From positions 1,088-65,087 of the forward strand of contig DATHCP010000010.1 of assembly GCA_035490535.1 (NCBI GenBank): a stretch of 64,000 bases of DNA, written 5' to 3'. Positions 3,805 through 49,225 of the stretch are shown here, one piece after another. Position numbers and translations under genes: made by a program. This DNA is from Actinomycetota bacterium. Its GTDB lineage: Bacteria > Actinomycetota > UBA4738 > HRBIN12. The notes under the pieces are model-generated. The model did not search any database. It was not told where the DNA came from and saw only the letters and a list, made by a program, of their open reading frames with translations. Each line of letters starts with the position of its first letter. Position 1 is the first letter of the stretch.

Positions 3805-5430
<1,626 letters not shown>

Positions 5431-5742
5431 TTACTTCTTGCCCTTGCCGAGCACCGCGAGCACGTCGCGGGCCGACAGGATCAGGTACTCGTCGCCATCG
5501 ACCTTGACCTCGGTGCCGCCGTACTTCGAGTAGACGACCGTGTCGCCGACCTTGACGTCGAGCGCGACGCGGCCGGTTCCCTCGTCGTTCCACCGGCCCG
5601 GGCCGGCCGCCACGACGGTGCCCTCCTGGGGCTTCTCCTTCGCGGTGTCCGGGATCACGAGCCCCGAGCTCGTGGTCTCCTCACCCTCGCCGGGCTGCAC
5701 GACGATCCGGTCCTCCAGCGGCTGGAGCTTGAAGTCCGCCAT
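5431..5742 (-). CDS. groS: co-chaperonin GroES
   Basis: [17 protein letters not shown]...[15 protein letters not shown]...[13 protein letters not shown]. Confidence 0.97.
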
Positions 5743-5792: not shown

Positions 5793-5819
5793 TTAGCACT
5801 CCAGACCCCTGAGTGCTAA
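5793..5819. promoter_or_regulatory. CIRCE operator (HrcA binding site) upstream of groES
   Basis: TTAGCACTC-N9-GAGTGCTAA perfect consensus at 5793-5819, ~50 nt upstream of groES start. Confidence 0.9.
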
Positions 5820-5915
5820 CAGGATAGCCAGGCGAGTGCCAACGCGGCAACGCGTCCCGCCGTCGGGCGATGGACCCTTGACCGTTCCGCGGGACCGGGC
5901 CGAGACTGTCGTTCC

Positions 5916-7055
5916 GTGAGCCTGCGGTGGGCGAGGGCGTCCGGTGCCGGGCCGGCGTGGTTCGCGGCCCGCGTGCTCGGGATCTCGGGGCTGGTCGCCG
6001 GCCTGCTGTTCCCGGCCGCAGCCGCGCCGGCGCGTTCGCTCCCGTGTCAGTCGTGGGGCGCCCAGCCGCCCCTCGTGGGCACCAGCACCGCCCTCGGCGG
6101 GATCGCGGCCGGCGGAGCCTGCGACGTCTGGGTCGTCGGGTCGGCCAACGGGGGCTCGCTCACCACGATCCAGCACTGGGACGGGGTGCGGTGGACGACG
6201 CTGCCGAGCCCGAGCCCAGGCGCGGTGCTGAATAGCCTCTGGGGCGTCGCCGTCGTGTCCGCGAACGACGCCTGGTCGGTGGGCAGCTATCGACAGATCA
6301 CGACGGATGAGCCGCTGATCGAACACTGGAACGGCCACACCTGGTCCGTGACCCCGAGCCCGACGATCGAGGGCTCTCTGTTGGCCGTCGTCGCGTTCGG
6401 CCACCACGACGCCTGGGCGGTGGGCACGGCCGGCAGCAGCGCCACGGCACGTCCGTTGATCCTGCACTGGAACGGCCGGCGGTGGAAGGTCCAGGCGACC
6501 CCGAACGTCGGCGCTGGCTACGCGTTCCTGGGAGGGGTCGGCGGGACCGGCCCTCGGGACCTCTGGGCCGTCGGCTCCCACCGGAACGACGACCGCACGC
6601 TTGCCCTGCACTGGAACGGGCGCCGATGGACGGTCGTTCCCAGCCCGAGCCCGGATCCCGACGGTGTCCTCGGCTCGGTCTCGGCGGTCGCACCCGACGA
6701 CGTCTGGGCCGTCGGGAGCCATGGCCCGGTGATCCATCCGCTCGTCGAGCACTGGAACGGGCACCGGTGGACGGTGCGGCACAGCCCGAACCTTGGCCCG
6801 TTCAAGACCGACCTCGCCGCCGTCTCGATGACGTCGGCGGAGGATGGCTGGGCGGTCGGCTACCGGGACGTCGGCACACAGATCCAGAACGTCGTCGAGC
6901 ACTGGAACGGCCATGCCTGGTCGATCGTCCCGACCCCGACGTTCGGGATGCAGAGCGTGCTGTCCGGGGTCGTGGCCGTGTCGCCGCAACGGATCTGGAC
7001 GGCGGGAAGCTTCATCGGCAGCGCGACGTATCCCCTGGTGCTCGGATGTTGCTGA
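5916..7055 (+). CDS. secreted repeat-propeller protein (paralog A), ~48-aa repeats, C-terminal CC
   Basis: Hydrophobic N-terminus; 7 repeats of consensus LIEHWNGxxWxxVPSPxxxxxxLxGVxAxxxxDxWAVG; ends ...LVLGCC. Confidence 0.7.
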   Translation: MSLRWARASGAGPAWFAARVLGISGLVAGLLFPAAAAPARSLPCQSWGAQPPLVGTSTALGGIAAGGACDVWVVGSANGGSLTTIQHWDGVRWTTLPSPSPGAVLNSLWGVAVVSANDAWSVGSYRQITTDEPLIEHWNGHTWSVTPSPTIEGSLLAVVAFGHHDAWAVGTAGSSATARPLILHWNGRRWKVQATPNVGAGYAFLGGVGGTGPRDLWAVGSHRNDDRTLALHWNGRRWTVVPSPSPDPDGVLGSVSAVAPDDVWAVGSHGPVIHPLVEHWNGHRWTVRHSPNLGPFKTDLAAVSMTSAEDGWAVGYRDVGTQIQNVVEHWNGHAWSIVPTPTFGMQSVLSGVVAVSPQRIWTAGSFIGSATYPLVLGCC

Positions 7056-7065
7056 GGGAGGCAGG

Positions 7066-8220
7066 ATGAACGTTCGCCCACTCCGCCGGCCGATCCGGCC
7101 GATCGCGGCCGCGCTCGCGGTCCTCGCGTCGACGGTCGCGATCTCGATCCCATCGCACACCTCGACCGCGGTGGCGGCGACGGCGTGCGCGACGTTCGGG
7201 TTCGCACAGCCACCCAGCCCCGGCTCCTCGAACGACCAACTCCGCGGTGTGGCGGTGCTCTCTTCGTGCAGCGCGTGGGCGGTCGGCCAGACCTCGAACG
7301 GCGGCGACTCGGCGACCCTGATCGAGCATTGGAACGGACGTGCGTGGAAGGTCCAGGCGAGCCCGAGTCCGGGCGCGGGATCCGATCTGCTCTACGCGGT
7401 GTCGGCTGCCGGTCCGCACACGGCCTGGACGGTGGGCAGCACGAACGACGGCGTCCTCGACCACACCCTGATCGAGCGTTGGAGCGGGAAGGCCTGGAAG
7501 GTCGTGAAGAGCCCGAACGTCCCCGGGGTGAACAACGTCCTGGAGGGCGTCGTCGCGTTCTCCCCCACGAACGCCTGGGCGGTCGGGTACGCGGCGACGG
7601 CCCCGCTCCGCACGCTGATCGAACACTGGAACGGCCGCGCCTGGCAGATCGCGAAGAGCCCGAACGCCGCGGGCGACAACCTCCTGACGGGCGTGGACGG
7701 ATCCTCCCCCACCGACGTCTGGGCGGTCGGGGACCGCGGGCCGGGGCCGAGCACGCTGATCGAGCGCTGGAACGGCCACGCGTGGAAGATCGTGAAGAGC
7801 CCGGACCCCGGGAGCGTGCAGAACGTCCTGATCGGGGTCTCGGCCGTCGGGCCGCACGCTGCCTGGGCCGTCGGCGACCGCTACGACGGTTCGACGACGA
7901 CGACGCTCGTGCTCCGCTGGAACGGGAAGAGGTGGGCGACCGCGAACAGCCCGTCGGGCACCGGAGCCACCAGCGAGCTCGACGGCGTCGCGATGACCTC
8001 GGCGACGAACGGCTGGGCGGCGGGCTGGTGGTTCGACGGCGCGGTGAACCATGCGCTGCTGCTCCGCTGGAACGGGCACGTATGGACGAAGCAGGCCCTG
8101 CCGACGAACGGCACCGCCGACGAGCTCCACGGGATCGGCGCCTCCTCCGCGAGCGAGGCCTGGGCGGTCGGGTCGTTCGTGAACACGGTGAACCGGGTGC
8201 TCGCGCTGCACTGCTGCTGA
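7066..8220 (+). CDS. secreted repeat-propeller protein (paralog B), C-terminal CC
   Basis: GGGAGG RBS then ATG 7066; signal peptide MNVRPLRRPIRPIAAALAVLASTVAIS; repeats TLIEHWNGRAWKV.SP...L.GV.A....AWAVG x7; ends ...LALHCC. Confidence 0.75.
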   Translation: MNVRPLRRPIRPIAAALAVLASTVAISIPSHTSTAVAATACATFGFAQPPSPGSSNDQLRGVAVLSSCSAWAVGQTSNGGDSATLIEHWNGRAWKVQASPSPGAGSDLLYAVSAAGPHTAWTVGSTNDGVLDHTLIERWSGKAWKVVKSPNVPGVNNVLEGVVAFSPTNAWAVGYAATAPLRTLIEHWNGRAWQIAKSPNAAGDNLLTGVDGSSPTDVWAVGDRGPGPSTLIERWNGHAWKIVKSPDPGSVQNVLIGVSAVGPHAAWAVGDRYDGSTTTTLVLRWNGKRWATANSPSGTGATSELDGVAMTSATNGWAAGWWFDGAVNHALLLRWNGHVWTKQALPTNGTADELHGIGASSASEAWAVGSFVNTVNRVLALHCC

Positions 8221-9914: not shown

Positions 9915-11294
9915 TCAGCCGGCGACCGGTTCGAAACGCGAGAGCGAGAACGGGCCCATCGTGACGGCGTGCACGCGCCCGTCGGCGCCGCGATGGAAGA
10001 TGACGGGGTCGCCCGACTGGCGCATCCCCGGGTCGACCGTGAACCGGTCGGGCTCGCCCGTCGGCGTGAAGACCGCCTTCCAATCGGGGTCGTCGGGGTC
10101 GACCATCGTCAATCGGTTGTCGCGCCACTCGATCCGGACCAGGATGCCGTCCTCCGCGTCGCCGTAGAGGCCGAGGAGATCGGCGAAGGCCTCGGGGAGC
10201 GGCGTGGGTGGCGACATCGACGCGGCGGCCCTCGCCGCCTCGAGCGCGAGCTCGGCAAGGGCCATCGAGAGATCGGCCGGCGGCGCGACACCGTTCAGCA
10301 GCGCGATCGCGCCGACCTTCTCCGGCACGCGGTAGCACGCGTTCGTCGAGAACCCGGGCAGGCCGCCGGAGTGCATCAGCCACACGGTCTCGCCGCGGCG
10401 CCGGCCGTACCAGCCGATCCCGTAGGCCTCGGTCCACGCGTCGTCGCCCAGGTAGCGGGGCTGGTGCATCTCCCGCAGCGAGGCGCCGGCCAGGACCTGT
10501 GCTCCGCTCCGGTCGCCGCCGTCCTCGAGGAACTGCGCGACGATCCACCGCCCGACGTCGTCCACGCACGACCAGAGGCCACCCTCGGCGCTCGGGAACG
10601 TGCGCAGACGCCGCGCCGGCACGGGAACGTCGCTCATCCACCGTCCTCGGTAACCGACGGCCGCGCGGGCGGCGAGCGCGTCGGACAGGGGCGGGAACGC
10701 CGTCGAGGTCATGCCGAGCGGCTCCAGGATCTGCGTGCGGACGTGATCGACGTACGGCACGCCGGCGACGCGCGCGACGATCTCTCCCAGCAGCTGATAG
10801 CCGAGGTTCGAGTACTTCTGCTGGGCGTTCGGAGGCAGCCGCGTCGCGATCTCGTCGGCGCGCGCGAGGTTCACCGCCGGCGAGGACTCGTAGACGTCGC
10901 GGGTCCAGTCGGCGTCGGGCGGATCGCCCATCAGCCCCGACTCGTGCGACAGGAGCCGGCGGATCGTGACCGTCTCGATCAGCCCGAACGGGCTCGCGGC
11001 GCGCCGGAGTTCGGGCAGGTACGCGACGGCGGGATCGTCGAGGTGGAGCTTCCCCTCGTCGCGCAGCTGCATGATCGCCGTGGCCGTGAACGTCTTCGTG
11101 ATCGACGCGATCCGGTAGAGGGTGGTCGCATCGGGCGCGCGGCCGGCCTCGACGTCGGCGAGGCCCGCGCCGCCCGACCACACGAGCCCGTCGCCGTGGA
11201 CCACGCCGGCGACGGCGCCCGGGAGGCGATGTTCGCGGACGAACGCGGTCACGGTCTGTTGATACCGATCCGAGAGGCTTGCGACGGACGACAT
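9915..11294 (-). CDS. beta-lactamase-fold serine hydrolase (class C / esterase family)
   Basis: SITK (SxxK) motif in YRIASITKTFTATAIMQL; YxN-like SNLGYQLLG; start MSSVASLSDRY at 11294. Confidence 0.8.
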   Translation of the reverse strand: MSSVASLSDRYQQTVTAFVREHRLPGAVAGVVHGDGLVWSGGAGLADVEAGRAPDATTLYRIASITKTFTATAIMQLRDEGKLHLDDPAVAYLPELRRAASPFGLIETVTIRRLLSHESGLMGDPPDADWTRDVYESSPAVNLARADEIATRLPPNAQQKYSNLGYQLLGEIVARVAGVPYVDHVRTQILEPLGMTSTAFPPLSDALAARAAVGYRGRWMSDVPVPARRLRTFPSAEGGLWSCVDDVGRWIVAQFLEDGGDRSGAQVLAGASLREMHQPRYLGDDAWTEAYGIGWYGRRRGETVWLMHSGGLPGFSTNACYRVPEKVGAIALLNGVAPPADLSMALAELALEAARAAASMSPPTPLPEAFADLLGLYGDAEDGILVRIEWRDNRLTMVDPDDPDWKAVFTPTGEPDRFTVDPGMRQSGDPVIFHRGADGRVHAVTMGPFSLSRFEPVAG

Positions 11295-11338
11295 GACGGG
11301 CGCCAGCCTACGTGAGCCGACTAGGATTGCCGAACGCC

Positions 11339-14300
11339 ATGGCGTCCCTCGATCAGCGTGTCTGCTCCTCGTGCGGCGGCACGAACCCCCCGGATGCGAA
11401 GTTCTGCGCCCGGTGCGGCACCGGCCTCGCGGCCGTGTGCGGGAGCTGCGGTCACGGGAACCTCCCCGATGCGAGCTTCTGCACCGAGTGCGGCGGTCCG
11501 CTGGTGACGACGAGCGCCTCCGGATACGCATCCCCGCAGGCCTACACGCCCGCAGCCCTGGCCGAGAAGATCCGCCGGGGCGGCACCCAGCTGGAGGGAG
11601 AGCGGAAGCAGATCACCGTCCTGTTCGCCGATGTGATCGGCTCGACCGGGATCGCGGAGCGGCTGGACCCCGAGGACATGCGGACGATCCTCCACCGGTC
11701 GTTCGACGTGATGCTCGAGCAGATCCATCGCTACGAAGGCACGGTGTCCCAGTTCCTCGGAGACGGGTTGCTCGCGCTGTTCGGTGCCCCGATCGCCCAC
11801 GAAGATCACGCGCAGCGGGCCGCGCGCGCGGCGCTGGACATCCAGGCGGCCCTCGAGCCGATCCGCGAAGAGCTGCGGTCGGCCCGCGACCTCGACCTCC
11901 GTTTCCGGATCGGACTCCACAGCGGCCCCGTCGTCGTGGGCCACGTCGGCGTCGATCTTTCGATGGACTACCTGGCGGTCGGCGACACGATGAACATGGG
12001 CGCGAGGATCCAAGCCGCGGCACCGCCAGGATCGGTGGTGGTCAGCGAGGCGACGCGACAGCTGATCGAGGGCTACTTCGTCCTGCGCGACCTCGGTGAG
12101 CAGGAGTTGAAGGGCAAGGGGCGCCAGCACGTCTACGAGGTCGAACGCCCCAACCGGCTCCGCTCGCGGGTGGACATCGAGGCCGAACGGGGCCTCGGAC
12201 CGTTCGTCGGCCGCGCCCACGAGCTGACCTCGCTGCACGACGCCTTCGAACGGGCCCGCGGCGGCACGGGCCAGGTCGTCCTCGTCTCGGGAGAACCGGG
12301 GATCGGCAAGTCCCGACTGCTGCACGAGTTCCGGAGCGCGCATGCTGGCGCCGACGCTGCGTGGCGGGTGGGCCGATGCATCTCCTACGGGACCGACATC
12401 CCATACCTCCCGATCATCGACGTGCTCAAGGACGCGTACCGGATCGACGAGGCAGACGACGACGAAGCGGTCGCGCAGAAGGTGCGTGAAGGTGTGCGGC
12501 TATCCGGAGCGGACCCCGGCGTCGCTCCGCTGCTGGTCGATCTCCTCGACGCAGGTGACGGGGCGGCGCCGCAGATGGATCCGCAGTTCCGCAAGGCGCG
12601 GACGTTCGAGGCGCTCCGCACCGTGGCGCTCACGGCGGCCGCCCATCGGCCGCTCGTGCTCACGATCGAGGACGCTCACTGGATCGACCCGGCCTCGACC
12701 GAGTACCTCTCGTTCCTGATCGAGGCGATCCCGGATCATCGGATCCTGCTCCTGCTCTCGCACCGTCCCGGATGGCTGCAGCCGTTCGGCGACGCTCCCC
12801 ACCTGCAGACGATCGGCCTGCGGAGCCTCTCGAACGTCGAGACGGTCGAGGTCGCGAGCGCGGTCGTCGGCGCATCGCTCCCCACGGAGCTGGAGGATCT
12901 CGTGTTCCGCAAGGCGGACGGGAACCCCTTCTTCGTCGAGGAGGTGACGAAGTCCCTGATCGAGGCCGACGCGATCCGGCGCGACGGCGACGGGTACGTG
13001 CTGACGCGCCCGCTCGCGGACCTCGACGTCCCGGACACGGTGCAGGACGTGATCATGGCCCGGCTGGATCGGCTCCCCGACGAGCCCAAGCGCGCGCTGC
13101 AGACGGCATCGGTGATCGGGCGGGAGTTCACGCTGCGGCTGTGGGAGCGCAGCGCGGACATCTCCGCGTCCTCGGGGGACGTCCGCGAGCTGCGCTCCCT
13201 CGAGCTCATCTTCGAACGGTCGCTCTACCCCGAGCTCGTCTACATGTTCAAGCACGCGCTCACCCACGACGTCGCCTACCAGAGCCTCTTACTGGAGCGA
13301 CGGAGGATCCTGCACGGCGTCGTGGCCGACGCGATCGCCGAGCTGTATGCGGACCGGCTGGCGGAGCAGGTCGAGACGCTCGCGTACCACTACGAGCGGG
13401 CCGAGCGCTGGGACGAGGCGCTCGACCACCTGATCCTTTCCGGCGAGAAGGCGATGACGAACTTCATGCCGCACGAGGCCGTCGGCTTCTTCGAACGGGC
13501 CGACGCGATCGTGCAGGCGGGGCACGCTGAGGTCGACCCCCAACGCCTGATGACGATGTACCAGCAGCAGGGAGACGCCTACCTCGAGATGAGCGTATGG
13601 GATCGCAGCGCCGCCAGCTTCCAGGCGATGCGGGAGGTGGCGCAGCGGGAAGGGGACGCCGATCGGGAGGGATTCGCCTTCTACTCGGAGTCGTTCGCGC
13701 AGCTGTGGGGCCATCGGTTCGAGGAGGCGTTGACGCTGGCCGAGGCGGCGGAGCGATCCGTGGAAGGATCGGGGAACCCGGCCGTCCGAGCCGGGGCCGC
13801 CGTGATGATCGCGCTCGTCCGCGCCCTGACCGGCGAGTTGATCGAGGCGACCGGGTTCGCGGAGGACGCGAAACGTCTTGCCGACGACGCCGACGCCTCG
13901 TTCATCCGTGGGCTCGCGCGGTGCACGCTCGGCGAGCTCCTCCACTGGCGCGGACGCGAGGACGACGCGCTCGCGGCCGTCTCCGAAGCCCTCGAGCTGG
14001 GCCGAGCCGAGGAGATCCCGTACCTGCTCCTCTGGGGCGGCTGGGACGACGCGTTGATGCGGTGCGGATCGGGCGATTACGACGGATCCCTCGCGGCGCT
14101 CCGCGAGGTCCTGGCGCTGAGCAAGCAGCTGGGCGACCGGGCCCTCTGGTGTCGGACCCTGAACACGTTCGGCTGGGTGTACATCGACCTGTGCAACTGG
14201 GAGCTGGCGCTCGACCACAACGGCCGCGGCGCCGAGGCGTCGAGGGAGTTCGGCGACCCCGAGATCATCCGCAACGCCGAGCTCAATCTGGCCGATTGTC

Positions 14301-14833
14301 ACCTCGCGACCGGCGAGCTCGAGGAGGCCGAGCGGCTCCTCGAAGGGGTGCAGGAGGCCTCCCGTGCCAGCGGCACCTGGGGTGAGGAATGGATGAAGTG
14401 GCGCTATTCCCAGCACACGGACGCGAGCCTCGCCGAGCTTCGGCTCGCCCAAGGGGATCTGTCGCGCGCGCGCCATCACGCCGATCGATGCATCGCGGCG
14501 GCGGAGGCCACCGATTCGAAGCGGAACGTCGTGAAGGGGCGGCGCGCGTCGGCCCGGATCGCCCTCCGTGAGGGGCGGCTCGACGACGCCGATCGCGAGC
14601 TCGCGCGCGCGGCGGAGATCGCACGGGCGATCGGGAACCCCGCACAGCTTTGGACGACGCTGGCGGCGCTCGGTGATCTCCGCGACGCGCAGGGCCGGGT
14701 GGACGAAGCCCGGGCGGCACGGAGGGAGGCGATCGACGTGATCGACCGCGTCGCTGCGAACCTCGCCGACCCGGGCATCCGCGACACGTTCCTGCGATCC
14801 CCGCAGGTGACAGCGATCCGCGAGGCGGCCTGA
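11339..14833 (+). CDS. double zinc-ribbon / class III adenylate-guanylate cyclase / STAND (AAA) NTPase / TPR signalling protein
   Basis: CSSCGG..CARCG and CGSCGH..CTECG ribbons; cyclase core ITVLFADVIGST...FLGDGLLALFGAP...DTMNMGARI; Walker A VLVSGEPGIGKSRL; long helical TPR-like C-terminus. Confidence 0.8.
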   Translation: MASLDQRVCSSCGGTNPPDAKFCARCGTGLAAVCGSCGHGNLPDASFCTECGGPLVTTSASGYASPQAYTPAALAEKIRRGGTQLEGERKQITVLFADVIGSTGIAERLDPEDMRTILHRSFDVMLEQIHRYEGTVSQFLGDGLLALFGAPIAHEDHAQRAARAALDIQAALEPIREELRSARDLDLRFRIGLHSGPVVVGHVGVDLSMDYLAVGDTMNMGARIQAAAPPGSVVVSEATRQLIEGYFVLRDLGEQELKGKGRQHVYEVERPNRLRSRVDIEAERGLGPFVGRAHELTSLHDAFERARGGTGQVVLVSGEPGIGKSRLLHEFRSAHAGADAAWRVGRCISYGTDIPYLPIIDVLKDAYRIDEADDDEAVAQKVREGVRLSGADPGVAPLLVDLLDAGDGAAPQMDPQFRKARTFEALRTVALTAAAHRPLVLTIEDAHWIDPASTEYLSFLIEAIPDHRILLLLSHRPGWLQPFGDAPHLQTIGLRSLSNVETVEVASAVVGASLPTELEDLVFRKADGNPFFVEEVTKSLIEADAIRRDGDGYVLTRPLADLDVPDTVQDVIMARLDRLPDEPKRALQTASVIGREFTLRLWERSADISASSGDVRELRSLELIFERSLYPELVYMFKHALTHDVAYQSLLLERRRILHGVVADAIAELYADRLAEQVETLAYHYERAERWDEALDHLILSGEKAMTNFMPHEAVGFFERADAIVQAGHAEVDPQRLMTMYQQQGDAYLEMSVWDRSAASFQAMREVAQREGDADREGFAFYSESFAQLWGHRFEEALTLAEAAERSVEGSGNPAVRAGAAVMIALVRALTGELIEATGFAEDAKRLADDADASFIRGLARCTLGELLHWRGREDDALAAVSEALELGRAEEIPYLLLWGGWDDALMRCGSGDYDGSLAALREVLALSKQLGDRALWCRTLNTFGWVYIDLCNWELALDHNGRGAEASREFGDPEIIRNAELNLADCHLATGELEEAERLLEGVQEASRASGTWGEEWMKWRYSQHTDASLAELRLAQGDLSRARHHADRCIAAAEATDSKRNVVKGRRASARIALREGRLDDADRELARAAEIARAIGNPAQLWTTLAALGDLRDAQGRVDEARAARREAIDVIDRVAANLADPGIRDTFLRSPQVTAIREAA

Positions 14834-47115: not shown

Positions 47116-47221
47116 GGTTCGGAGCTGCCCCCACGGACAGGTACGCCCTGCCCGCGGGGGCAGGCGACGCTCGCCCCTGGGTGCCTTGCGACCGAGGCGG
47201 GCGAACTCGCATCATCGACGC

Positions 47222-49225
47222 ATGCGACGCACCCGCACCGCGGCGGCGATCCTCGGCCCGATCCTCGTCGCCTCGATCGTGCTCGGCCCCGTGCCCGGCC
47301 GTTCGGCCACCGCGACCGGCTGGAGCATCGTGGCGGGGCCGAACACGTTCGGGCAGTGGGTGTTCCAGGACGTGGCGGCCGTCGGAGCGAGCGACGTCTG
47401 GGCCGTCGGCGTCCGCGGCGGGAACACCGGGACCCTCGCCGAGCACTGGGACGGCTCGTCGTGGACGGTCTCCTCGACGCTCGACCCCGACGCGCTCGGC
47501 GACCGGCTGCACGGCGTGGCGGCGGCCGACGCGACCCACGTCTGGGCGGTCGGCGTCGGGCTCACGATGTCCGGCGGCGTTCCCCTGATCGAGCGATGGA
47601 ACGGGACGGATTGGAGCCAGGACGCGGCGCCCGGCGACGGAACGCTCTGGGGCGTGGGCGCCCTGTCCGCGACCGACGCCTGGGCGGTCGGCTCGACCAT
47701 GGCGGGGACCACGCTGATCGAGCGCTGGAACGGCAGTTCGTGGAGCATCGTTCCGAGCGCCGATCCCTCGACGAACGACATCCTGTACGCCGTCGCCCCG
47801 ATCTCGGGGACCGACGTGTGGGCGGTCGGGCGCTCCGACGCGGGCACGCTCCTGGAGCACTGGAACGGCTCGGCGTGGACCGCGAGCACGGTCGGCGGCG
47901 GATCCCTCACCGGGATCGCGGCGTTCGCGACCGATGACGTGTGGGCGGTGGGCCACGGCCTGGCGACCCACTGGGACGGCTCGACCTGGACCGCCGCCAG
48001 CCTGCCCGTGCCGGCGGACGGCACCGTCGATCTGGCCGGCGTCGCAGGATCGGGCCCGCACGACGTCTGGGCGGTCGGCGCCTCCGGTGCCGAGACCCTG
48101 ATCGAGCACTGGGACGGCGCGGACTGGTCGGTCGTGCCGAGCCCGAACCCGACGTCGCCCCCACCGAACGGCGGAGCGTCCTTCACGGGGGTGGCCTCGG
48201 TCTCCGCGACAGACGCGTGGGCCGTGGGCACCGATCCCTGGAGCGAGAACACGCTCGCCGCGCGCTTCGCGGAGGGCGACTTCACCTCCGCGCTCTCGGC
48301 GGCGGGCCCGCTGTCGGTGTACGTCGGCGACGCCTCGAACGTCGTGGCCAACCTGGCGTTCTCGAGCAACGCGTCGGCCGCCGGTGAGACCGTCCACCGC
48401 TCGCGCCACGATCCGAACGGGACGGTGGAGGACCTGGGCGACGCGGTCACGGACGCGTACGGGCACGTGGCGTTCGGTGACGTCGTCGGCGCCAAGGGCA
48501 CGTACACGTACACCGCGACGTTCGACGGCCAAGGGATCTTCCCGGGGTCGACCGACTCGGTCCAGCTGACCGTGACCGGCCGACCGACCTCGGTGTCGCT
48601 CTCGTCCGGTCGGGGCCGGATCGTGGTCGGGGGCTCGGTGGTGTTCGCCGCCGACCTGAACGGTCCGCCGCCCGGCGCGCCGGTCGCGCTGTTCCGGAAG
48701 ATCTTCGGCCACGGCTGGGCGAAGATCGCGACCGGATCGGCCGGTGCCGGCGGGGCGGTCGCCTTCCGGCTGCGCCCGACGTTGAGCGCGATCTACCAGG
48801 CTCGGTTCGCGGGCGACGCCACCTATGCGGCCTCGAGCAGCGGCACGGTCCACGTCGAGGTCGCGGCGATCGTGCGGATCACCGCGCTCGGCGGCTACGC
48901 GACGAAGGCCGGGGTCCGGCGCTACCACTTCTCCGAAGCGTGCGTGCGCACGCACCGGCAGGACTGCCCCGTGTTCCTGGTGAGCGTGACGCCGAAGCGA
49001 CCGCACGCGGCGGTGACGATCCAACTGTGGGCCTTCGAGCGCAACGCCTGGCGCCCGGTGGGCACCACCACGCCCCACCTGGACGGAACGGGACAGGCGC
49101 TGGTCGCCTTCTTCTACCGCGACGGCTCGGTGATGGGGCTGCCCCTGCGGATCGGCGCCGAGGTGGGCGACAACCTCAGCGGCGACGCGATCTCGCCGTT
49201 CGCGCGGTTCATGATCACGCGCTGA
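47222..49225 (+). CDS. secreted repeat-propeller protein (paralog C) with C-terminal Ig-like region
   Basis: Signal peptide; TLAEHWDGSSWTV...LIERWNGTDWSQ...LIERWNGSSWSIVPS...LLEHWNGSAWTA...LIEHWDGADWSVVPSPNP repeats with ..DVWAVG; then ~300 aa beta-rich region. Confidence 0.7.
   Translation: MRRTRTAAAILGPILVASIVLGPVPGRSATATGWSIVAGPNTFGQWVFQDVAAVGASDVWAVGVRGGNTGTLAEHWDGSSWTVSSTLDPDALGDRLHGVAAADATHVWAVGVGLTMSGGVPLIERWNGTDWSQDAAPGDGTLWGVGALSATDAWAVGSTMAGTTLIERWNGSSWSIVPSADPSTNDILYAVAPISGTDVWAVGRSDAGTLLEHWNGSAWTASTVGGGSLTGIAAFATDDVWAVGHGLATHWDGSTWTAASLPVPADGTVDLAGVAGSGPHDVWAVGASGAETLIEHWDGADWSVVPSPNPTSPPPNGGASFTGVASVSATDAWAVGTDPWSENTLAARFAEGDFTSALSAAGPLSVYVGDASNVVANLAFSSNASAAGETVHRSRHDPNGTVEDLGDAVTDAYGHVAFGDVVGAKGTYTYTATFDGQGIFPGSTDSVQLTVTGRPTSVSLSSGRGRIVVGGSVVFAADLNGPPPGAPVALFRKIFGHGWAKIATGSAGAGGAVAFRLRPTLSAIYQARFAGDATYAASSSGTVHVEVAAIVRITALGGYATKAGVRRYHFSEACVRTHRQDCPVFLVSVTPKRPHAAVTIQLWAFERNAWRPVGTTTPHLDGTGQALVAFFYRDGSVMGLPLRIGAEVGDNLSGDAISPFARFMITR

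Follow-up and report, generated by a model that had tools for sequence, protein, structure and literature searches.

Predicted exported beta-propellers of an actinobacterial genome and a probable disulfide clasp at their Velcro joint

Genes A and B are a tandem pair of paralogues in a 64,000-nucleotide stretch of high-GC DNA (about 70%; the window) from an Actinomycetota metagenome-assembled genome (MAG), and a third, longer paralogue, gene C, lies 40 kb away (Table 1). We find that the proteins of this pair are built from repeats of about 48 residues that fold, in a model of protein B, into a seven-bladed beta-propeller whose last blade is completed by the mature chain's N-terminal end, and that the cysteines at the two chain ends co-vary among relatives. 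We consider it probable that A and B are exported propellers clasped by disulfides at this Velcro joint and, less certainly, that they serve as non-catalytic binding scaffolds outside the cell. An earlier reading of the same DNA made without database searches (the sequence-only reading) had singled out the terminal Cys-Cys (CC) of both proteins as an unexplained hallmark, but this ending is confined to one subfamily, where it co-varies with two N-terminal cysteines, and it has an ordinary structural explanation that does not call for exotic chemistry. A propeller fold of this kind and the two ways of closing it, by Velcro and by disulfide, are already known, and the finding is therefore no new type of system but an uncurated repeat family whose fold is known and whose closure is unusual but explicable.

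Fold and ring closure

In both proteins, A and B, we count 7 W[AST][AV]G motifs and 6 [HR]W[NDS]G motifs plus a terminal variant of the latter, and cutting the chains after HWNG gives repeat units of 47 to 51 residues. The chains end in ..LVLGCC (A) and ..LALHCC (B). Over their propeller regions, A and B are 42% identical to each other, while C shares 37% to 38% identity with A and 35% to 36% with B. Homologues were matched with E-values down to 1e-132 in sequence searches, and this, together with the confidence of the structural model described below, places the repeat pattern far beyond chance. The earlier description of A and B as paralogous beta-propellers of about 48-residue repeats that end in Cys-Cys is thus borne out by the motif counts, the unit lengths, and the model. 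At the level of DNA, Tandem Repeats Finder detected a tandem period across blades 3 to 5 of gene B (Table 1) and nothing comparable in gene A; the similarity of these blades suggests a recent intragenic duplication or gene conversion between them.

The AlphaFold2 model of B, built on an alignment of 95 sequences (B, A, and 93 homologues), has a mean predicted local distance difference test score (pLDDT) of 91.9 and a predicted template modelling score of 0.87, with disorder only in the signal peptide. DSSP assigns 28 strands to it in seven four-stranded blades (strand A with 9 to 12 residues, B with 7 to 10, C with 6 to 9, and D with 3 to 4), with an isolated N-terminal strand at residues 44 to 46 and a final strand at 376 to 383. 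Mapped on the repeat, each blade runs from strand A (LxGVxAxS) over a two-residue turn into strand B (xAWAVGx) and a variable B-C loop, which is followed by strand C (TLIEHW), a four-residue turn (NGxx), strand D (WxxV), and an SPxPG loop to the next blade.

In the model, blade 7 of B takes strands A to C from the C-terminus and strand D from the N-terminus, i.e., the ring is closed by a 1+3 Velcro joint in which one blade is shared by both chain ends. The repeat register agrees with this, as ..LIEHWNG/RAWKV.. of a regular blade corresponds to ..LALHCC/CATFGF.. at the closure of B (the slash marks the point where the two chain ends meet), with Cys383 replacing the conserved Trp, Cys384 the Asn, and the N-terminal Cys the Gly of HWNG. 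As modelled, the chain ends of A and B hence come together inside the tight C-D turn, exactly where the other blades keep the HW(N/D)G-xxW hairpin. What the sequence-only reading had taken for a truncated last blade is therefore completed by the first mature strand. Closure of the 1+3 Velcro type has been described for large propellers, and N-to-C disulfides for four-bladed ones (PMC8458387). For protein C, the register places N-terminal TGWSIV as the Velcro strand, and the chain runs on past ..TLAARF into a C-terminal tail.

Cysteines at the Velcro joint

The N-termini of A, B, and C all show a basic n-region, a hydrophobic h-region, and Ala-rich cleavage motifs on direct reading, and signal peptides are predicted for about residues 1 to 38/42 of A and 1 to 40 of B. 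Export by the Sec pathway is thus likely for all three proteins, and the earlier reading had described the tandem pair as secreted. The predicted cleavage motifs precede the first Cys by 1 to 6 residues, and mature A and B would start 0 to 5 residues ahead of the first propeller strand. Twin-arginine (Tat) export was rejected because its motif is not consistent among relatives. A lipoprotein reading was rejected as well, since no lipobox (tested as [LVI][ASTVI][GAS]-C at the cleavage site) was found: A has ..RSLP-C, relatives show R, T, P, or G at position -1, and the residues ahead of the N-terminal Cys are R, T, P, G, S, and A overall. The ATA-C of B fits a permissive lipobox pattern, yet that Cys is residue 41. 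A few distant members (P0011 and P0014, with LLVSAC) look like lipoproteins, though via a different Cys.

Each protein of the pair has 4 cysteines in total, two N-terminal ones (N1 and N2) and two terminal ones, which are Cys44, Cys69, Cys378, and Cys379 in A and Cys41, Cys68, Cys383, and Cys384 in B. We counted the arrangements of these positions in 95 aligned single-propeller members. The commonest Cys-bearing class has only the first N-terminal Cys together with one C-terminal Cys (26 of 95; ..HC, ..YC, or ..HCR), followed by members with both N-terminal cysteines and CC like A and B (16 of 95) and by those with both N-terminal cysteines, no C-terminal one, and a full WNGxxW hairpin at the end (13 of 95). 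No Cys is present at either end in 31 members, and 9 show other combinations. The number of cysteines in the mature chain is 0, 2, 4, or 6 in 87 of the 95. On a neighbour-joining tree of core columns, the first N-terminal Cys changes at least 16 times and the whole class at least 29 times. The classes are interspersed on this tree, and the coupling of N- and C-terminal cysteines therefore does not come from a single clade but has been maintained through many independent switches.

Even parity and coupling of the two chain ends in exported proteins are a signature of disulfides rather than of a C-terminal modification signal, and the abundant class with one Cys at each end implies that the N-terminal Cys bonds to the C-terminal one. 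Together, co-variation and parity strongly suggest that disulfides form here. It is known that actinobacteria depend on disulfide bonds in the proteins they export (PMC2823432). We propose that the first mature strand (C41-ATFGF in B) takes the place of strand D in blade 7 and that, after export to the oxidising actinobacterial envelope, the 4 cysteines would form two disulfides that lock the Velcro joint. By parsimony, these would be C41-C384 (or C383) and C68-C383 (or C384) in the numbering of B. The terminal CC would then be one half of a structural clasp and not a modification or sorting signal, and the closure would merge the Velcro of large propellers with a disulfide typical of four-bladed ones.

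How well the CC is conserved depends on the relatives that are considered. It is kept in the subfamily of A and B in related MAGs, where all 7 paralogues examined (three in L001, two in L002, and two in L004) have just the four cysteines of the pair, with an HCC ending and both N-terminal ones, and two open reading frames (ORFs) of L007 likewise end in ..LALHCC, but across the aligned family the two-plus-two arrangement is limited to the 16 members counted above. The B orthologue of L001 (gene 3, 10001..11176) is annotated with a frameshifted tail, and its +1 frame gives ..VNQALALHCC. Such apparent frameshifts affect B orthologues and one further paralogue (L001 10001..11176 and L007 5032..7440), and they look like assembly indel errors rather than pseudogenes.

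The position of the CC at the extreme C-terminus and its retention in orthologues and tandem paralogues of related MAGs would also be expected of a signal that directs lipidation, attachment to the cell wall, or some other post-translational modification. We see next to no prospect for this idea, given that most of the family has a single Cys or nothing at this place, in step with the N-terminal cysteines, and that the N-terminal Cys has no lipobox. Sortase or PEP-CTERM anchoring was rejected because the sequences contain neither these nor other sorting motifs, nor is there a hydrophobic tail, and no gene for a modification enzyme is kept nearby in the contexts examined.

Several points weigh against the disulfide clasp as proposed. 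The case for disulfide formation and pairing is made from Cys co-variation and from the repeat register, i.e., from sequence, and it is this register that places the closure cysteines side by side. The 95 sequences are related and the neighbour-joining tree is rough, and 8 of the 95 members have an odd number of cysteines. The pairing itself is ambiguous: a bond between N1 and N2 combined with a vicinal C383-C384 disulfide is an alternative candidate, as P0035 has only the two N-terminal cysteines, and N2 with a single C-terminal Cys in the absence of N1 occurs in none of the 95. Member P0103 (L072 6001..7194), which departs most clearly from the clasp pattern, has its only two cysteines in the terminal ..VEHCC with no N-terminal partner, and these would be either free thiols or a vicinal disulfide. 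In P0090, the partner of N1 is instead a Cys of the A-B turn in blade 7, and this indicates that the geometry of the Cys cluster is plastic.

Some of these observations could also speak for a functional CC, either as a strained vicinal disulfide that acts as a redox switch or latch or as part of a metal site (Zn/Cu) at the ring closure with the His ahead of it and the N-terminal Cys, with the N-terminal cysteines pairing with each other. Each half of the cluster is indeed found alone (the CC in P0103, the N-terminal pair in P0035 and the 13 hairpin-ended members), no member combines N2 and one C-terminal Cys without N1, and a His precedes the CC in B and most relatives. However, A has Gly at this position, members with two cysteines cannot build a metal site, and the CC is missing in most of the family and so cannot be essential to family function. 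Vicinal disulfides are also rare and strained. In the commonest Cys-bearing class, the single N-terminal and single C-terminal Cys can pair only with each other, which points to the N-to-C link as the ancestral logic, and we regard a redox or metal role of the CC as unlikely. The specific variant of a redox-operated latch, in which the strained C383-C384 disulfide would exchange with the N-terminal pair and thereby open or re-close the ring or free the N-terminal strand according to the redox state of the envelope, deserves little credence in our view. It would fit the hypervariable top-face loops and the tandem expansion of the family and, if true, would make the family, with its more than 60,000 uncharacterised representatives, a novel group of scaffolds for sensing or adhesion outside the cell in soil Actinomycetota and Chloroflexota.

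With a disulfide clasp at the Velcro joint as the preferred explanation, the family would display at least 4 natural closure states—no Cys, one N-to-C disulfide, the four-Cys clasp, and an N-terminal pair with a full C-terminal hairpin—and the many switches between them make it comparative material for propeller folding and design. A separate subfamily, seen in an alignment of 27 long homologues (e.g., P0286 and P0271) and at L006 4251..5408, has two cysteines per blade with the consensus LxxVxCxSxxDCWAVG, probably forming one intrablade disulfide across the A-B hairpin of each blade. This arrangement is met in very long chains with several propellers, the longest of 3,727 residues.

Family, known propellers, and likely role

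With B as the query, a word-indexed search gave over 7,800 matches, which are unnamed or "hypothetical" except for three whose labels are evidently arbitrary. When 1.84 billion cluster representatives (clustered at 50% identity) were searched exhaustively with a profile, 63,570 passed E<=1e-3, and 20,245 of these passed E<=1e-30. Genome matches with B alone as the query come mostly from soil MAGs, with taxa that include Actinomycetota (Streptosporangiaceae, Trebonia, Solirubrobacterales, and Acidimicrobiales), Chloroflexota/Ktedonobacteria, and Dormibacterota as well as a small number of Proteobacteria. Among cultured strains, Streptacidiphilus melanogenes NBRC 103184 stands out most clearly as a carrier, and the only other isolate match is a Streptomyces sp. 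scaffold flagged UNVERIFIED_CONTAM. Many members are giant proteins with two to six propellers and up to 3,727 residues. The long ones are fused to SLH, dockerin, PKD, fn3, TIG, He_PIG, FG-GAP/VCBS, CarboxypepD_reg, and Big_3_5 domains or to other propellers (WD40, PD40, and the Vgb_lyase type), and these partners indicate an extracellular or cell-surface location. Vgb_lyase, found in 2 of 27 members, is the only partner of enzyme type, and none recurs beyond it.

For A, B, and C, Pfam gave no BNR, PSII_BNR, WD40, or Kelch match at E<=1, and a search of NCBIfam gave no match. Marginal or sub-threshold matches to DUF2510 (on A, 25.8 where the cut-off is 24, though none of its stretches is significant by itself), DUF6087, and Rax2 were rejected as family assignments since they cover only the xWDGxxW hairpin. 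Sequence searches of the PDB with B (phmmer) or with the 95-sequence profile produced nothing meaningful, neither 7RON nor any other propeller, and the ThreeFoil match to B (E 0.011) is spurious. The sequence-only reading had called the repeat reminiscent of Ycf48-type blades, yet not a canonical Asp-box, and had left the family uncharacterised; the first point is right at the level of fold, where Ycf48 ranks second, and the others agree with these searches, in which a confident match to a well-characterised propeller family was looked for by sequence (Pfam, NCBIfam, and PDB) and none was found. In the copies searched, the family thus has no Pfam or NCBIfam match above cut-off. It dominates some soil lineages, and a curated model together with a single solved structure would give an annotation to tens of thousands of proteins now listed as "hypothetical".

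Foldseek ranks CylK first for the model of B, then Ycf48, and then Kelch, the RSL lectin, PON1, and GH74; the two nearest folds (the CylK propeller and Ycf48) are only 11% to 16% identical to B. A library of viral folds returned only generic propellers of tail fibres and structural proteins. The closest shape is the C-terminal propeller of CylK (PDB 7RON/7ROO; 11% identity), a cyanobacterial Friedel-Crafts alkylating enzyme. In CylK, an N-terminal Ca-binding beta-roll and the top face of the propeller form the active site, and Ca sites lie at each blade junction (PMC8916777). A and B differ from CylK and BrtB in that they begin directly at the propeller, are predicted to be exported, lack the N-terminal beta-roll, and show no propeller homology to 7RON that is detectable by sequence.

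With WD40 propellers, the pair shares the seven blades, the 1+3 Velcro closure, and a scaffold that is conserved while the top face, the putative binding side, varies (PMC8458387). Unlike these, A, B, and C have no WD40 match in Pfam, a 48-residue repeat with three Trp per blade, a predicted extracytoplasmic location, and, in A and B, the proposed Cys clasp; WD40 matches within the family fall in separate domains of long fusion proteins. The four-bladed hemopexin-like propellers (the Hpx domains of matrix metalloproteinases and vitronectin) are eukaryotic and have no Velcro strand exchange, whereas the putative disulfides of A and B would add to a 1+3 Velcro joint and sit exactly in its split C-D hairpin. 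The closure of A and B would thus combine a hemopexin-like disulfide with a WD40-type Velcro. The Asp-box of BNR propellers (sialidases, GH74) reads S-x-D-x-G-x-T-W and lies in the C-D hairpin. The motif of A and B in their C-D hairpin, xWNGxxW, keeps the spacing of its G and W, but in full (E-[HR]-W-[ND]-G-x-x-W) it lacks the Ser, Asp, and Thr of the Asp-box and does not place the proteins among the BNR families.

The likeness to Ycf48/HCF136, an assembly factor of photosystem II that binds D1 (PDB 2XBG and 5OJR; Foldseek E 8e-11, i.e., about 1e-10, TM-score 0.55 to 0.70 with 0.57/0.70 for the second-best match, and 14% to 16% identity) lies in an exported seven-bladed propeller of similar size, and it would fit assembly chaperones that dock on extracytoplasmic loops of a membrane protein complex. 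Nevertheless, this reading appears very improbable to us. A and B do not match the PSII_BNR profile, their host is a non-phototrophic Actinomycetota MAG, and their relatives live in soil Actinomycetota, Chloroflexota, and Dormibacterota rather than in oxygenic phototrophs. The massive paralogy of the family, its tandem and multi-propeller forms, and its fusions to SLH and dockerin domains are unlike an assembly factor with one copy per genome, and no membrane-complex genes are conserved nearby in the contexts examined.

All columns that are conserved in at least 90% of the alignment hold repeat-scaffold residues (W, G, L, A, V, P, and S), and no invariant blade-specific polar residue (Asp, Glu, His, Arg, or Tyr) was found among the 95 sequences. 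Entropy peaks in the B-C loops of the top face (3.13 bits), which are 0 to 20 residues long, while the turns of the bottom face have fixed lengths in most blades (C-D 4 residues, A-B 2 residues). Conservation that is restricted to the scaffold, together with variable loops, argues for a rigid scaffold that binds through evolvable loops, as in WD40, Kelch, and lectin propellers, and not for an enzyme with a conserved active site. With moderate confidence, we therefore suggest that A and B are exported, disulfide-stabilised binding modules whose specificity would lie in the hypervariable B-C loops and would differ between tandem paralogues. Glycans or surface proteins seem the likeliest ligands.

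On the other side, the top structural matches include enzymes (CylK, Vgb lyase, PON1, and GH74), the fusion partners say no more than "extracellular", a conserved operon partner was not found in the nine contexts examined, we found no experimental work on any member, and the family-wide lack of an invariant polar residue leaves room for catalysis that is specific to subfamilies. A and B could be extracellular enzymes with an active site in the central channel or top face, e.g., Vgb- or CylK-like lyases or alkyl-transferases, PON1-like lactonases, or BNR/GH74 glycosidases, and the dockerins of some family members as well as a GH12 gene next to one homologue (L002) could be seen in this light. 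We find this unlikely, since identity to these enzymes is just 9% to 14%, no Pfam enzyme family is matched, and the CylK active site needs an N-terminal Ca-binding domain (PMC8916777) that A and B lack. The conserved columns, moreover, are scaffold residues of every blade, and WD40, integrin, and lectin propellers score almost equally in the structural comparison.

Genes and their surroundings

Table 1. Coordinates of genes A, B, and C and of their features in the window.
Feature	Positions	Strand	Description
Gene A	5916..7055	+	379 aa, GTG start (ORF list); predicted exported seven-bladed propeller, 4 Cys in mature part
A Cys44 (N1)	6045..6047	+	At G position of HWNG turn, just past predicted cleavage site
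A Cys69 (N2)	6120..6122	+	A-B turn of blade 1, three residues before Trp of WVVG; same column as B Cys68
A Cys378-Cys379	7047..7052	+	Terminal ..LVLGCC
Putative ribosome-binding site of B	7056..7061	+	GGGAGG, 4 nt 5' of ATG, 1 nt past A stop codon
Gene B	7066..8220	+	384 aa from ATG (MNVRPL...); predicted exported seven-bladed propeller, 4 Cys (41, 68, 383, 384)
B Cys41 and first mature strand (C-A-T-F44-G-F46)	7186..7203	+	Strand D of blade 7 in the model; DSSP strand 44-46, CxxF aligned to GxxW
B Cys68 (N2)	7267..7269	+	Two-residue A1-B1 turn
Tandem period in DNA, blades 3 to 5 of B	7464..7810	+	144 nt, 2.4 copies, 77% matches, score 399 (Tandem Repeats Finder)
B last strand (N376-C383)	8191..8217	+	Strand C of blade 7 in the model, ending Cys383-Cys384; DSSP strand 376-383, repeat register
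Gene C	47222..49225	+	667 aa, longer paralogue; 100% identical to P0121 ("MAG TPA hypothetical protein VK646_01485")
Gene C propeller part	47222..48268	+	Predicted signal peptide and 7 WAVG blades; no Cys at either closure position
Gene C C-terminal region	48269..49225	+	About 320 aa, all-beta in a low-confidence model; Cys pair 574/582

The tandem pair and the third paralogue lie exactly where the sequence-only reading had placed them, though the 679 residues that it gave for protein C belong to an upstream TTG start at 47186, while the public protein starts at 47222. For protein A, NCBI has an identical entry, HTG46273.1 ("hypothetical protein VK646_01280, Actinomycetota bacterium"). The listed ORF that contains gene B spans 6844..8220, and the ATG at 7066 is its plausible start. 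Gene A ends with a TGA stop codon at 7053-7055, and the gap of 10 nt to the co-directional gene B suggests that the two are co-transcribed. They run divergently from groES (5431..5742, minus strand) and groEL (3805..5418, minus strand). The divergent intergenic region of 173 nt between groES and gene A contains a perfect CIRCE-type inverted repeat, TTAGCACTC-N9-GAGTGCTAA, at 5793..5821. It is the expected HrcA operator of groESL and could also overlap the promoter region of gene A.

Near A and B, the window encodes APH, PAS_3, beta-lactamase fold, and cyclase-AAA_16-TPR STAND genes. The earlier reading had named these neighbours correctly but had filed the pair under an accessory block, a label that the conserved gene order does not support. 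The window and L001 (a related MAG whose contig measures 1.27 Mb) share the order ABC2 (an ABC-2 permease), Glu dehydrogenase, groEL, groES, propeller paralogues, APH, PAS_3, beta-lactamase fold, and STAND. In L007, too, groEL lies beside the propeller paralogues, and a mobile accessory block was rejected because of the synteny kept in these two. Beyond this, gene surroundings are not conserved in the contexts examined apart from two features. Tandem duplication of the propeller genes recurs in L001, L002, L004, and L007. Regulators recur nearby in a loose manner, with extracytoplasmic function (ECF) sigma factors in L004 and L071, PadR-HAAS in L001, and LuxR/AAA_16 in L002, and the padR-HAAS and ECF neighbours may hint at regulation by envelope signals. 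In L001, padR and the HAAS-domain gene (6642..7600) lie between groES and the paralogues on the same strand, and the window does not contain this pair.

Gene C adjoins DsrE-like and LysR genes. The beta-rich, Ig-like region that had been assigned to the C-terminus of its protein is all-beta by DSSP in a model of only 58.6 pLDDT (five sequences), so that the first part of this description stands with low confidence; the Ig-like character is plausible and draws on weak matches to Big_3_5 (E 2.6e-4, in two stretches and under the Pfam cut-off) and on PF16640 precomputed for the homologues P0123 to P0125. The only two cysteines of protein C (Cys574 and Cys582, 48941..48967) lie eight residues apart in this region (..SEACVRTHRQDCPVF..) and are invariant in all four full-length homologues, which makes a local disulfide loop between them probable. 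Downstream of the tandem pair, a large ORF (11312..14833, plus strand; 1,173 residues) joins a double zinc ribbon, an adenylate/guanylate cyclase, an AAA_16 STAND NTPase, and MalT-type TPR repeats, and the counterpart region of L001 is split into two separate genes.

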